Below are positions 28,200 to 63,792 of a stretch of DNA of 64,000 nucleotides, piece by piece. A program made the translations under genes and the position numbers. The notes under the pieces were generated by a model. The model was not told the origin of the DNA. It saw only the letters and a list, made by a program, of their open reading frames with translations, and made no database searches. Positions within the stretch are counted from its first letter, which is position 1. Each line of letters opens with the position of its first letter. The DNA is from Escherichia coli (lineage in GTDB: Bacteria; Pseudomonadota; Gammaproteobacteria; Enterobacterales; Enterobacteriaceae): assembly GCF_003790525.1 (NCBI RefSeq), contig NZ_CP033635.1. The stretch is one strand, 5' to 3'.

Positions 28200-31100
28200 T
28201 TATTCCGGGCGCGGCTTCAGCGGGAAGCGGCGGCGCACCAGCACAAAGAACAGCGGCACGAAGTAAATAGCCAGAATAGTGGCCGAAATCATCCCGCCCA
28301 TTACGCCAGTACCCACCGCATGCTGACCACCGGAACCGGCACCCGTGCTGGTTGCCATTGGCAATACGCCGAAGATAAATGCCAGCGAAGTCATCAGAAT
28401 CGGGCGTAAACGCTGACGGCAGGCGTGGAGCGTCGCTTCAAACAGGTCGTGGCCTTTTTGGTTCATCTCGTTAGCAAACTCGACGATCAGGATGGCATTT
28501 TTCGCCGATAAACCAATGACCGTTAACAGGCCCACCTGGAAGTAAACGTCGTTTTCCAGCCCGCGCATCCAGGTTGCCAGCAGCGCGCCGATAACCCCCA
28601 GCGGCACGACCAGCATTACCGAGAACGGCACCGACCAGCTTTCATACAACGCCGCAAGACACAGGAATACCACCAGCAAGGAAATGGCGTACAGCGCCGG
28701 AGCCTGCGCGCCGGAAAGCCGCTCCTGATACGACATCGCCGTCCACTCCAGACCAAAGCCGTTTGGCAACTGCTTCACTAACGATTCCATAATATCCATC
28801 GCCGTACCGGTACTGACCCCCGGTGCGGCTTCCCCTACAATCTCTACCGCAGAATAACCGTTATAGCGTTCCAGACGCGGCGAGCCTGTCTCCCAGCGTG
28901 AGGTCGCGAAAGCAGAGAAGGGCACCATGCCGCCATCTTTATTTCGGACATACCAGAGATTGATGTCATCTGGCAGCATGCGATACGGCGCAGCTGCCTG
29001 CACATAGACTTTCTTCACGCGACCGCGATCCATAAAGTCATTCACATAGCTCGAACCCCAGGCGGTTTGCAGTGTGTCGTTAATATCGTCGATAGCAACG
29101 CCCAGCGCCTGAGCTTTACGCTGGTCGATATCAATCTGCAACTGCGGACTGTCGTCGAGGCCGTTATGGCGCACACGGGTTAGCTCCGGGTTTTCCGCCG
29201 CCAGCGCCAGCAACTGGTTACGTGCTGCCATCAGCGCATCGTGACCCGCTCCAGCGTGGTCCTGCAACTCCATATCAAAACCCGCAGAACTACCAAGACC
29301 GCTAATTGCTGGCGGGCTGCTGGCGATAACGCGAGCTTCTTTAATCTTGTTAAACGCCTTCGTTGCACGCTCGATAATGGCAAACGAGGTGCCGGTCTTA
29401 CTGTCGCGTTCGCTCCAGTCTTTCAGGCGGATAAACATTCTCGCCACGTTTTGCCCGTTACCCCCAGGGCCAGAACCAACAGTGGCAAACACCGACATGA
29501 TGTTGTCTTTTTCATGGGTGAAGTAGTATTTCTCGATTTGCTCAACGACTTTCAGGGTCTGTTGTTGGGTTGAACCGCTGGGCAACTGTACCGAGGTAGT
29601 AAACATGCCACGGTCTTCCAGTGGCAAGAACGACGTCGGCAAACGCAGGAACAGGAACACCATGCCGCCAAGCAGCAGGACATAAATCACAATCCAGCGC
29701 AGGCTACGGTGGAGAATTTTCGCCACCCCTTTTTCGTAGCGTTCGGCGTTGCGGTTAAACATCTGGTTAAACCAGGCAAAAAAGCCTTTTTGCCCGTGAT
29801 GCTCACCTTTTTTCAGTGGCTTAAGTAGCGTGGCACACAGAGCCGGAGTGAGGATCATCGCTACCAGTACTGACAGCACCATCGCTGCAACAATGGTAAT
29901 AGAGAACTGGCGATAGATGGCACCGGTGGTGCCGCCGAAGAAGGCCATTGGTACAAATACCGCCGAAAGCACCATCGCAATCCCGACCAGTGCCCCCTGG
30001 ATCTGCCCCATCGATTTACGTGTGGCTTCGCGAGGAGTGAGTCCTTCCTCACTCATAATACGTTCGACGTTTTCCACCACCACGATGGCGTCATCCACCA
30101 GCAGACCGATCGCCAGCACCATCGCGAACATGGTTAAGGTGTTGACGCTGTAACCGAAGGCATAAAGTACGGAGAAGGTTCCCATCAACACCACCGGCAC
30201 GGCGATAGTGGGTATCAGCGTGGCGCGGAAGTTTTGCAGGAACAGATACATAACGAGGAAAACCAGAGCGATAGCTTCCAGCAGCGTTTTCACCACGTCT
30301 TCAATGGAGGCTTTAACAAACGAGGTGGTTTCATACGCCACCTTGTATTCCAGTCCGTGCGGGAAATACTGCGCCAGCTCGTCGAGACGATTGAGCACCA
30401 GCTCCGCTGTCGCCATTTCGTTCGCGCCGGAGGCCAGTTTTACCCCCAGCCCGGAGGCTGGCATACCATTGAAGCGGCTAAGATAATCGTATTTTTCCGC
30501 CCCCATTTCGATGGTGGCGACATCGCCCAGCCTTACCTCTGAGCCGTCCTGATTCACCCGCAAGGTGATATCGCGGAACTGTTCTGGTGTTTGTAGCAGT
30601 GACTGGGCGTTAATGGTGGCGTTGAGCGCCTGCTTATCGACGGAAGGCGTACCACCAAGTTGCCCAACCGCAATCTGCGCGTTCTGTGACTCAATGGCAT
30701 CAGTGACATCTTTAGCCGTCATCTGGAAACTGTTGAGTTTCGCCGGGTCCAGCCAGATACGCATGGAATATTGCGAACCATAGGCATCGATATCCCCGAC
30801 GCCATTCACGCGGCTTAACGGATCCTGAATATTACTGGCAACGTAATCGGCAATATCCTGTTTATCCATCGAACCATCGGTAGAGACGAAGGCAATGGTC
30901 AGAATATTGGTATCGCCGGTTTTACGCACCGTCACGCCCTGATTTTGCACCGCCTGCGGTAACTTTCGCATGGCTGATTGCAGCTGGTTTTGTACTTGCT
31001 GCACGGCTTCGTCCGGATCGGTGCCTGCTTTAAAACTTAAAGTGACAGATGCCTGGCCGGTGCCACTGCTCTGAGACGACATATACATGAGATTATCGAG

Positions 31101-31313
31101 GCCGGTCATATTTTGCTCGATAACCTGGGTCACGGTGTTTTCCAGCGTCTGGGCCGATGCGCCGGGATAGTTAGCGGTCACTCGCACATTCGGTGGCGCG
31201 AGATCGGGGTATTGTTCAACGGGCAATGAAAAAATCGCCAGGGTACCTGTCAGACACAACAGGATTGCCAGCACCCAGGCAAAAATGGGGCGATCAATAA
31301 AGAAATTCGCCAT
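28200..31313 (-). CDS. acrD: RND multidrug/aminoglycoside efflux pump, inner-membrane transporter
   Basis: 1037-aa ORF with AcrB-type N-terminus ([18 protein letters not shown]). Confidence 0.95.
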
Positions 31314-31383
31314 TAAAAGAGGACCTCGTGTTTCTGCGTATCGTTGTAGGCTTGACTTGCTTCACTGTAGCGGCAAGGTACGA

Positions 31384-31401
31384 GCCAATCGTGGAGAAAA
31401 A
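31384..31401 (-). promoter_or_regulatory. BaeR-binding box upstream of acrD
   Basis: Minus strand reads TTTTTCTCCACGATTGGC, 17/18 match to the recalled BaeR consensus TTTTTCTCCATDATTGGC, about 70-90 bp upstream of the acrD start. Confidence 0.6.
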
Positions 31402-31476
31402 AAGGAGTTAATGTAAATTATCATGCCCTTTTATACTGAACCTTAAGTGCCACTATTCTTTGGTCAATAAGAGGCA

Positions 31477-33177
31477 TTACATCAGCTGACTTTCCTCACC
31501 CTCCGCAGAGCGAAAGCTAATACTCACTAACGTGCCGCCGCCGGAAGGTTGCGAAAAAGTCAGCGTCCCACCCAATCTTTCCGCGCGTTCGCGCATGATA
31601 TTCAGACCATAATGGCCTTCGGGTTCTTTCGGTTCACCGATGCCAATCCCGTTGTCGCGAATATAGACTGTGTGATTGCCATCCGGCGCGGTGACGCAGC
31701 TAACGGCGATTTCGCTGGCGTTGGCGTGCTTCATCGCATTCAGCACCGCTTCGCGAATAATTTGCAACAAATGCACCTGCATTTGCGCATCCAGCGCCAG
31801 GGTTGGCAGACGGCAGTCGAGGGTCAGTTTGGCGCTGGTTTGATTTTGTAACGTATCCAGCATTTCCCTCAACGCGGAGGGGAGATCCGCCTGCTGCAGC
31901 GTCAGGCGGAAAGTAGTTAACAGCTCGCGTAACTGCCGATAAGCATCATTCAACGCCTGGGAAAAATCGGCCATGATACTTTGTGCGGTGGCATTATCTT
32001 CCGGTATCGAACGCTTCAGTAACGTCAACTGGATACGTAAGTAAGAAAGTACCTGAGCCAGCGAGTCGTGCAATTCGCGGGCGATGGTCGCACGTTCTTC
32101 CATCAACAATAACTGCTGAAAATGCTTCTGCGCCTGATTAAAGTACAAACCGCGTCCCAGCATCGACGAAACGCTGTTAAGCAGCGGTTCTGATGATGAA
32201 ACGTGACTATTTTGCCAGTGCAGTTCGCCGTAAACCGTCTCTTGCATTGTCACCGGTAAAATCTGCATCGGCAATTCCGGGTTTGGCTGCCCTTCGCTAA
32301 TCCGCCAGTTGTCACCGACATTTAACTCCAGATATTCAGCCGCTTCATTGTCGCGAACAATCTGCAAAATATGGCGGAAACAATGCACATCAATCTGGCT
32401 GGTGTTTAGCGCCTGCGAACACTGATACAACACCTCCAGACGACGCTTGGCCTCGTGGAGATCGCGGGTCTTTTCTTCTACTGACGCCTCCAGCGAACGG
32501 TACAATTTATGCAGCTCGCTCGACATCTGGTTAAAGGTTTTTGCAAGCAGGCCAAGCTCATTCGGCAGGCTGGTATCCAGCGGCGGCGAGTCGAACTGCC
32601 CGTGTTCAATACGCTGACTGGCGGTAACCAGCTGATTCAGCGGGGCAACCACCTGATGGCGTATGCGGCGCAAAGTAAAAAAGACCAGCGTGAAAATACC
32701 GATGCCGCCAGCCAGGGAAATCGCCACCACCAGCAGCATTTTGCGTTCAGCGTAGTGCTGTAAAGCCAGCACGAACAGGTCTATCTGATTAACATAATTA
32801 TTAATATTGGCCTGATACCACGGCAAGTCGCCCTTGCTGAGCCGATTATTCATCTCCAGCCAGTTGGCATTCAGATGCGCATAGCGGGTTTTTACTGCCT
32901 CTGGCACATACCAGACGTTGAGATTGGTTAATACCGGTGAATGCAGTGCCTGCTGAAATAACTGGCGATGTGCATTGAGTTGTGGACTGCCACTTTGCAA
33001 ATCGTAGCCCAGGCGGTAACTCTGCATACGCAGCGATCCGGCAATATTGATAGCCTCAGCGTCGCGCAAACTGCTCGCCAGAGTTAGCAGAGCGATACCC
33101 GTGGAAAGAATCGACAGCAGCACAATGTAAAAAAAGGCCCGGGCCAGACTGGCCGAGACGGGTCGTTTAACAATCAC
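31477..33177 (-). CDS. narQ: Nitrate/nitrite sensor histidine kinase
   Basis: Track ORF 31477-33192; the recalled N-terminus MIVKRPVSASLARAFFYIVLL corresponds to the GTG at 33177 with GGAGAA RBS (566 aa); HAMP and HisKA_3 (ELHDSLAQ) regions present. Confidence 0.9.
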   Translation of the reverse strand: MIVKRPVSASLARAFFYIVLLSILSTGIALLTLASSLRDAEAINIAGSLRMQSYRLGYDLQSGSPQLNAHRQLFQQALHSPVLTNLNVWYVPEAVKTRYAHLNANWLEMNNRLSKGDLPWYQANINNYVNQIDLFVLALQHYAERKMLLVVAISLAGGIGIFTLVFFTLRRIRHQVVAPLNQLVTASQRIEHGQFDSPPLDTSLPNELGLLAKTFNQMSSELHKLYRSLEASVEEKTRDLHEAKRRLEVLYQCSQALNTSQIDVHCFRHILQIVRDNEAAEYLELNVGDNWRISEGQPNPELPMQILPVTMQETVYGELHWQNSHVSSSEPLLNSVSSMLGRGLYFNQAQKHFQQLLLMEERATIARELHDSLAQVLSYLRIQLTLLKRSIPEDNATAQSIMADFSQALNDAYRQLRELLTTFRLTLQQADLPSALREMLDTLQNQTSAKLTLDCRLPTLALDAQMQVHLLQIIREAVLNAMKHANASEIAVSCVTAPDGNHTVYIRDNGIGIGEPKEPEGHYGLNIMRERAERLGGTLTFSQPSGGGTLVSISFRSAEGEESQLM

Positions 33178-33382
33178 ACGCGTCTTCTCCACAAAAAATC
33201 ATTAATGTTCCAGTTCGCTGAAACGCAATTTAGTCAGTGATGGGATTATTTGATCTGCCACAGTTTATAGCGAAATAGTTACTTATTCTGGGCACATGAA
33301 CATTGCCGATTCCCCTGTAAGTCGGGTAATAACAACACTCATATAAAGAATAAGGTTTTTACAACCAAAAAAGAAGGTCGTT

Positions 33383-62490: not shown

Positions 62491-63792
62491 TTACTGCTTT
62501 AACGCCGCATACACCTGATCAACTACCCAACCATAAGTTGCAATCGGTAGCTGACCGCTTTCGAACATATTGGGATTTTTTTGTGGATCGGCAACTGGCG
62601 AATGTGGCTTGTTGCTTAACATCACAATCGCCATATGATTCACCGGATCGATAACGGTCACCGTCCCGGTCCAACCTGTGTGACCGTAGGTTTGCGGGCT
62701 TGCCAGCGTGCCAAACGTCGGCGTCATGGTGGCATTACCATTCACGCGCCAGCCAAGGCCAAAAGTGGCATCTTCCTTAGAGCTGGTGGTGAACATCTTC
62801 ACCGTTTCTGCATTGAACAGCTGCACATCACCATAGCCACCGCCGTTCAGCATCGTTTGCATTAACACCGCAATATCGCCGGTATTGGAAAACAAACCTG
62901 CGTGCCCGGAAACACCGCCCATCGAATAAAAGGCTTTTTCATCGTGCACCTGACCCCAGAGAGTGGAGGTGCGGATATTCGGGAAGTGAATCACGCCATC
63001 GCGGGTATTGCCGTTCAGTTCCGTGGCGGCAATTTGCTGTGGTTTAAAGCCTTTCAACAGCGGATTAAACACCGTATGCGTCAGGCCGAGCGGGCGATAA
63101 ATCGACTCTTCAACATAGTGGTCAAGCGGCTGACCGGTGACCGACTCGACGATAAATCCAAGCAGCATATAATCGACATCGCTGTAGATATGCTTGCTGC
63201 CGGGCTGATACTCCAGCGGCGTGCGCTTGATCATCTCCAGCGTCTGGCCTTTATCCTGGGAATATAACGCGCCCGCGACCGCTTTATTCGGGTATTGCGG
63301 ATCTGCCGGGAAACCGCCGCTGTGATGCAGCAGATCAGAAATCCGCAGCGTGTTTTTGCCTTTGATCGCATCGTTCGGGCTGTCGGCAAACCCTGGAATA
63401 TATTTCGCAATCCGATCGTCAGGATGCAGTTTGCCTTCGCTCATCAGCTTTTGCAGCGCGAAGTTAGTGGCGTACATCTTGGTGTTTGAGGCCAGATCAT
63501 ACAGCGTCCCGGTGGTGGCTTTTACAGGCTGCGCCATTAACGCGCTGCCATCGTACTTTTTCGCCGCGCCCCAGGCTTTGCGATAAACAATCTGATTATC
63601 TTTTATAATCAGCAGGTTTACGCCGGGATAACCGGCATCAACTTGCTGGCTTATCCAGCGATCCATCTGATTAAGCCGTTCGACGTTAAACCCTGCCTTC
63701 TCTGGCGAACTTTCTGTCAGAACAGGGTATTTTGCGGCGCTGACGCTACAGCTGACAGCCAGCAGAGAAAGATAGAGCATTGTCCGTTTCAT
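62491..63792 (-). CDS. yfeW: Penicillin-binding protein 4B (class C beta-lactamase-like DD-peptidase)
   Basis: Track ORF 62491-63879; the ATG at 63792 (MKRTMLYLSLLAVSCSVSA signal peptide) gives about 433 aa; SxxK-type motif (LASNTK). Confidence 0.85.
   Translation of the reverse strand: MKRTMLYLSLLAVSCSVSAAKYPVLTESSPEKAGFNVERLNQMDRWISQQVDAGYPGVNLLIIKDNQIVYRKAWGAAKKYDGSALMAQPVKATTGTLYDLASNTKMYATNFALQKLMSEGKLHPDDRIAKYIPGFADSPNDAIKGKNTLRISDLLHHSGGFPADPQYPNKAVAGALYSQDKGQTLEMIKRTPLEYQPGSKHIYSDVDYMLLGFIVESVTGQPLDHYVEESIYRPLGLTHTVFNPLLKGFKPQQIAATELNGNTRDGVIHFPNIRTSTLWGQVHDEKAFYSMGGVSGHAGLFSNTGDIAVLMQTMLNGGGYGDVQLFNAETVKMFTTSSKEDATFGLGWRVNGNATMTPTFGTLASPQTYGHTGWTGTVTVIDPVNHMAIVMLSNKPHSPVADPQKNPNMFESGQLPIATYGWVVDQVYAALKQ

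Follow-up and report, generated by a model that had tools for sequence, protein, structure and literature searches.

The BaeR box upstream of acrD in Escherichia coli and its conserved context: a 34-bp block with tandem repeats at a fixed distance from a putative -10 element

BaeR is a winged-helix regulator of the OmpR/PhoB family, and AcrD exports aminoglycosides and some beta-lactams. The published 18-bp BaeR consensus, as quoted in PMC3915751 and PMC3799227, is TTTTTCTCCATDATTGGC; a second published consensus, quoted in PMC3799227, is TCTNCANAA. According to PMC2731931, acrD carries one of only four BaeR binding sites reported in E. coli, and direct regulation of E. coli acrD by phosphorylated BaeR is cited in PMC10052836. 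BaeS mutations that overexpress AcrD are reported to give temocillin resistance in Enterobacter (as cited in PMC13209484). With drug export by AcrD and temocillin resistance linked to BaeS, the cis-element that couples acrD to envelope stress is clinically relevant, though already described: the site analysed here is the published BaeR box of acrD, which is also listed in regulon databases. What is added is incremental, namely how far its conservation truly extends, its organisation as a tandem repeat and its fixed distance to the putative -10 element across Enterobacterales.

The window, i.e. the whole 64-kb stretch of E. coli DNA analysed, contains the box and its neighbouring genes at the following positions:

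31384..31401, minus strand: 18-bp BaeR box as published (Nishino-type consensus), TTTTTCTCCACGATTGGC, read from the window
28200..31313, minus strand: acrD CDS (RND aminoglycoside/multidrug efflux permease), 1037 aa
31477..33177, minus strand: narQ CDS, upstream neighbour of acrD on the same strand

Read from 31401 to 31384 on the minus strand, TTTTTCTCCACGATTGGC spans -88 ~ -71 relative to the acrD ATG at 31313, in agreement with the first-pass annotation, which had placed the box about 70-90 bp upstream of the acrD start. The same annotation correctly named the downstream gene: ORF 28200..31313 is AcrD, reaching 2264 bits with the NCBIfam equivalog NF007842 (cut-off 1854), and the acrD annotation is present in E. 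coli genomes 100% identical over the site region. Because the stop of narQ is at 31477, the box lies inside the 163-bp narQ-acrD intergenic region (31314..31476). The narQ start differs between the mechanical ORF, which begins with GTG at 33192 (571 aa, 31477..33192, minus strand), and RefSeq (566 aa from 33177). Of 5425 E. coli records, 5337 carry an identical copy of the 61-bp segment around the box, whereas an identity of 99% or more over the surrounding 401 bp is found in only 1413. From 31452 down to the acrD ATG, the window shows no difference from K-12 MG1655.

With an identical promoter, expression data from K-12 apply directly to the window. In K-12 exposed to 5% ethanol, knockout of baeR lowered acrD expression by log2 -2.91 (p = 2e-39; a 7.5-fold fall); without stress, the same knockout left acrD unchanged (log2 -0.20) (PMC7657598 supplement). 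Induction of acrD by tungstate was abolished by deletion of baeS (PMC13209484), and the response of an acrD promoter-lux fusion (-274 ~ +11) to indole required BaeS/BaeR (PMC4780735). The baeR knockout, the baeS deletion and the lux fusion support the first-pass proposal that the box fits the envelope-stress induction of acrD; the lack of BaeR dependence that had been named as counter-evidence is not what these K-12 data show. In Erwinia amylovora, BaeR shifted an acrD upstream fragment in a gel shift, the shift being a smear, and overexpression of BaeR induced acrD about 4-fold. Compared with the conserved TCT(C/T)CACGATT core in the acrD promoters of other Erwinia species (L030, L033, L038 and L043), the E. 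amylovora box given in PMC3915751, TTCTTCACGATTACTGGC, seems to have been aligned about 2 nt off.

Dependence of acrD on BaeR could also be indirect, with the sequence around the box acting as the operator of CpxR or of another OmpR-family protein under BaeR control. ChIP-exo of K-12 in 5% ethanol detected BaeR at mdtA and spy, with no peak at acrD, despite the strongly BaeR-dependent expression of acrD, and its authors regarded acrD as indirectly regulated; knockout of cpxR, moreover, lowered acrD expression by log2 -1.87 (PMC7657598 supplement). However, CpxR is described in PMC2731931 as acting on acrD in a strictly BaeR-dependent manner, and acrD of E. amylovora was induced by overexpression of BaeR but not of CpxR. 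A negative ChIP-exo result from a single condition is weak evidence, which we rank below the conservation described below and the in vitro reports, yet it is the main caveat to direct binding.

Employing TTTTTCTCCATDATTGGC as the query, we found a single match in the 64 kb, the acrD site, with 17/18 positions identical and C for T at position 11; the 17/18 match on the minus strand noted in the first-pass annotation was thus reproduced. Under a zero-order model with the base composition of the window, the expected number of matches with at most one mismatch is 2e-4 per window and 0.014 per 4.6-Mb genome. The fetched K-12 promoters provided these sites:

K-12 mdtA site, fetched promoter: TTTTTCTCCCTTATTGGC
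K-12 spy site, fetched promoter: TTTTTCTCCATAATTGGC
K-12 acrD site, fetched promoter: TTTTTCTCCACGATTGGC

The majority consensus of the three aligned sites is exactly TTTTTCTCCATDATTGGC, with D standing for the T, A and G that occur at position 12. The promoter of ycaC, the fourth reported BaeR target, is without a match to the 18-bp consensus at up to 3 mismatches and adds nothing to it. Together with the mdtA and spy sites, the acrD site appears to have founded the published consensus, and for this reason its 17/18 score is circular. With acrD left out, the consensus of mdtA and spy becomes TTTTTCTCCMTWATTGGC, to which the acrD site matches at 16/18 positions as the sole match in the window; this is the comparison with the mdtA and spy promoters that the first-pass annotation had proposed. 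Matches to TTTTTCTCCMTWATTGGC at 2 mismatches are expected about 0.0065 times per window and 0.47 times per genome under the same model. Considering its location in the promoter of a BaeR-induced gene, the match to the acrD-free consensus is still significant.

The circular 17/18 score, the T-rich sequence and the lack of specificity of a simple hexamer model (see below) leave some room for a chance resemblance, in which an UP-element-like or structural sequence without a specific regulator would merely look like a BaeR box. The 0.0065 matches expected per window for the acrD-free consensus and the stress- and BaeSR-dependent response documented for the acrD promoter argue against it, as does the phylogenetic footprint of the site.

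Using the first 400 residues of AcrD as the query, we scanned the GTDB species representatives (genomes of 100,044 species) and compared the upstream regions of 57 orthologous loci (75-99% amino-acid identity) with those of 23 AcrB-like loci (62-65% identity) as the paralogue control. The orthologues span Escherichia, Citrobacter, Enterobacter, Kosakonia, Serratia, Erwinia, Pantoea, Pectobacterium, Brenneria, Rahnella, Yersinia, Hafnia and Budvicia. The core of the site was present in 57/57 fetched AcrD orthologues, with a median leave-one-out PWM score of 40.4 bits. TCTCCACG or a one-base variant of it occurs in 55/57, and 55 align gap-free; the remaining two score 33.8 bits (L045) and 10.7 bits (L050, degenerate). 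In 22 of the 23 AcrB-like loci the score is -9 bits or less, i.e. the site is absent. Presence in all orthologues and absence from 22/23 paralogues indicate purifying selection on the site. A core that is near-invariant in 57 orthologues of many genera, lies beside unconstrained flanks and is absent from the paralogues contradicts the chance reading, which we consider highly improbable.

The sole exception among the paralogues is the AcrB-like locus of Pseudescherichia vulneris (L077), in which TTTTTCGCCATGCTTGTC, at about -259 ~ -233 from the RND gene start, matches the consensus at 15/18 positions and overlaps a PWM match of 10.9 bits. This BaeR-box-like sequence is probably located inside the upstream adaptor gene.

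Based on per-column conservation in 55 distinct orthologous promoters, the conserved element forms a sharp block of 34 bp, and the flanking intergenic columns are at background:

31420..31387, minus strand: 34-bp conserved block, TAATTTACATTAACTCCTTTTTTTCTCCACGATT, with the consensus gaTaaTTTACAyTwTCTcCTtnnTTTCTCCACGwTT from 55 promoters

A PWM of the block gave 53.6 bits at the window site against -8.1 bits for the next best position in the window. The conserved element reaches 19 bp further upstream than the 18-bp box, and its centre is shifted about 7 bp upstream. At the other end, the GGC that closes the box (31386..31384) is unconserved between genera, the commonest base reaching only 31-45%; ATTGGC 3' of the hexamer is common to acrD, mdtA and spy of E. 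coli and is kept in neither the acrD nor the mdtA orthologues. As judged from these alignments, the textbook BaeR consensus amounts to three aligned sites of E. coli, and its 3' end does not hold more widely. The first-pass annotation had suggested a PWM scan and named a poor score as an argument against the site; with a PWM built only from acrD orthologues outside Escherichia, the window site scored 36.3 bits and the next best 4.6 bits.

Three hexamers stand out inside the block:

31417..31412, minus strand: H1, distal hexamer TTTACA, at about -60; TTTACA in 51/55 orthologues
31408..31403, minus strand: H2, middle hexamer ACTCCT, at about -51; elsewhere TCTCCT in 41 and TCTTCT in 9
31397..31392, minus strand: H3, proximal hexamer TCTCCA, core of the published box, at about -40 ~ -35 of the putative transcription start

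Among the 55 orthologues, H3 reads TCTCCA in 51, TCTTCA in 3 and TATCCA in 1. The spacing between H2 and H3 is 11 bp in all orthologues, and that between H1 and H2 is 9 bp. H2 and H3 are two direct half-sites at the 10-11 bp distance of an OmpR/PhoB-type tandem. H3 fits the TCTNCA of TCTNCANAA, and the position that varies in H2/H3 is the fourth, i.e. the N of TCTNCANAA.

At 31408 on the minus strand, the first position of H2, A is found in K-12 and in 5337/5425 E. coli records and T in nearly all other genera; T is also found at this position in a minority genome labelled E. coli (L005). In view of this distribution, the A at 31408 is a change derived in E. coli. It may weaken the site and may be related to the missing ChIP-exo peak at acrD.

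The bare model TCTNCA-N5-TCTNCA did not discriminate: when up to 2 mismatches were allowed, it gave 43 matches in the window and 48 in shuffled sequences, and we rejected it as a site detector. Even the acrD site of E. coli fits it only with 2 mismatches. Because the bare hexamer model is non-specific, assignment of BaeR contacts to the hexamers rests on conservation and analogy. One perfect TCTNCA-N5-TCTNCA is present in the window (TCTTCACCGTTTCTGCA, 62796..62812, plus strand), antisense within the pbp4b CDS; with 0.12 such matches expected per window, we took it as a chance match.

H1 is of interest to the indirect reading, since the near-invariant TTTACA holds a CpxR half-site on the opposite strand (GTAAA, 31413..31417, plus strand), the only perfect one in the intergenic region. 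However, no tandem CpxR consensus (GTAAA-N5-GTAAA with up to 2 mismatches) was found in the 163 bp of 31314..31476. In addition, the acrD site has its core in common with the mdtA site, itself covered by a BaeR ChIP-exo peak, and with the operators of BaeR relatives. Weighing these points together with the expression data, we consider it unlikely that acrD is controlled by BaeR only through another protein. The partner of H1 is probably either a further BaeR contact or CpxR at a single half-site. In the whole window, GTAAA-N5-GTAAA with up to 2 mismatches occurs 52 times (38.7 expected; 1 of 100 shuffles reaches 52), with none of these matches in the acrD promoter.

Downstream of the block, the conservation in the orthologous promoters points to the following core promoter elements:

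31369..31364, minus strand: putative -10 hexamer TACAGT, from TAnAGT-type conservation in the orthologues
31356..31358 (about 31357, A), minus strand: putative transcription start, placed from the -10 position only

In 53 of the 55 orthologues, a TAnAGT-type hexamer follows the T of H3 at a distance of exactly 28 nt. Its variants are TAAAGT (21), TACAGT (19), TAGAGT (7), TACATT (3) and TAAGGT (3). The spacer between the block and TAnAGT, 17 bp, is unconserved, and the distance to the ATG varies from 78 to 347 nt. A phasing fixed at 28 nt despite the variable spacer and leader is the pattern of a -10 element in phase with an activator site. From its position we infer a start near 31357, which would give a 5' leader of about 44 nt. 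A consensus scan of 31200..31600 for sigma-70 promoters and terminators found nothing, TACAGT being too weak a -10 for the sigma-70 scan; absence of a sigma-70 consensus is expected for an activator-dependent promoter and is consistent with one, not positive evidence for it. We also considered TTTACA (H1) as the -35 element of a second promoter and rejected it, because nothing -10-like lies 16-18 bp downstream. An Rfam scan of the intergenic region gave no match, and a possible hairpin after narQ was no better than shuffled sequences (z = -0.5).

The distance from the module to the ATG is about 84 nt in Enterobacteriaceae and grows to 200-350 nt in Erwinia persicina, Pectobacterium and Rahnella (L030, L044, L061, L054, L055 and others), implying long 5' leaders of acrD in these bacteria.

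We consider it very probable that the 18-mer is the core of the BaeR-dependent activator site of the acrD promoter. Upon envelope stress (indole, tungstate, ethanol, metals), BaeS phosphorylates BaeR, and a BaeR dimer would bind head-to-tail to the two TCTNCA-type hexamers, H2 (31408..31403) and H3 (31397..31392), 11 bp apart. We read H2/H3 as the half-sites of a BaeR dimer because CTCCA repeats of the same 11-bp period make up the DzrR box and the AdeR operator. The pair would lie at about -51/-40 of a promoter with a recognisable -10 (TACAGT) and no usable -35 element, at which BaeR, as we infer from this geometry, would recruit RNA polymerase as a class-II activator and turn acrD on. TTTACA at 31417..31412, in the same conserved module, probably provides a further contact for BaeR or CpxR.

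A wider proposal can be put forward only tentatively. The functional unit would be the whole 34-bp module of three hexamers, TTTACA-N3-TCTCCT-N5-TCTCCA, locked at 28 nt from the -10 element, and not the published 18-mer; TTTACA would be a composite contact that tunes activation by BaeR via CpxR or a second BaeR dimer, the published alignment of mdtA with acrD would be one repeat out, and the change from T to A at 31408, specific to E. coli, would weaken the site to a degree that explains the missing ChIP-exo peak.

Of the known BaeR operators, that of mdtABCD-baeSR (TTTTTCTCCCTTATTGGC, K-12 2153945-2153962) has the same base as the acrD box at 15/18 positions. Like acrD, mdtA has a BaeR-dependent promoter with a CTCC repeat one helical turn upstream; the period of the repeat is 10 bp in mdtA and 11 bp in acrD. 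A BaeR ChIP-exo peak (2153931-2153967) covers the region of the mdtA box (PMC7657598 supplement). When the PWM from acrD promoters outside Escherichia was run over the 1 kb upstream of K-12 mdtA, its top matches, at 627-661, fell on this box region under the peak. Among the best 120 protein matches, orthologues of mdtA and of spy came from Enterobacteriaceae only, and both footprints are shallow. In the mdtA promoters compared (Klebsiella, two Citrobacter and one further sequence), GTTTCATAATTCCTCCAT, just upstream of the box, and GCTAaACTAGTATCATT are invariant (629-663 in the K-12 locus, L002), and the 18-bp box is poorly kept; in Klebsiella it is lost and reads TTTTTAAGCGGCGTTCGC. If the -10 element of mdtA is TAMACT, the conserved mdtA pair would be located at -51/-40, like H2/H3 of acrD, and in that case the boxes of mdtA and acrD may have been aligned one repeat out of step in the published comparison.

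The spy box, TTTTTCTCCATAATTGGC, differs from the acrD box at 2/18 positions. Over 2 kb around K-12 spy, the same PWM ranked the 18-bp box first (18.9 bits), followed by a direct repeat, TCTTCATAATCTCTGCAAAA, which is of the TCTNCANAA type. In Salmonella and two Citrobacter, the spy orthologues compared, the box is kept as TTTTTCT[C/T]CA[T/C]AATTGGCG, with variation in TCTNCA confined to the N, as in acrD; TCTCCACGATT of Citrobacter spy is identical to the proximal half-site of acrD. The spy sites are far upstream of the core promoter, whereas the acrD box would lie over the -35 region. Spy is also co-activated independently by CpxR, as stated in PMC2731931. The upstream ChIP-exo peak at spy (1825823-1825843) is on the TCTTCATAATCTCTGCAAAA repeat (L003 824-844), not on the 18-bp box at 1825765-1825782 (766-783) (PMC7657598 supplement).

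Outside the BaeR regulon, the acrD pair resembles the operators of two other efflux-pump promoters, in which OmpR-family regulators likewise act on tandem direct repeats. The AdeR operator of adeABC in Acinetobacter baumannii, known from a crystal structure, reads CTCCACACTT-N-CTCCACACTT in reverse complement, and the footprinted DzrR box of desAB in Dickeya/Burkholderia is TCTCCA-N5-TCTCCA (PMC10052836); both are CTCCA repeats with the 11-bp period of acrD. These are other proteins in other genera, and their repeats are near-perfect copies, whereas H2 (ACTCCT) and H3 (TCTCCA) of acrD differ from each other and are joined by a third element, TTTACA. As for the proposed mode of activation, a close parallel is the pho box of PhoB. 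In class-II activation at the pho box, a dimer of the OmpR/PhoB family replaces the -35 element. The pho box is a tandem direct repeat of 11 bp that overlaps the -35 region of a promoter with a -10 and without a -35 element, an arrangement that the acrD site would share; the sequence recognised by PhoB differs from that in acrD, for which the corresponding geometry is deduced from conservation.
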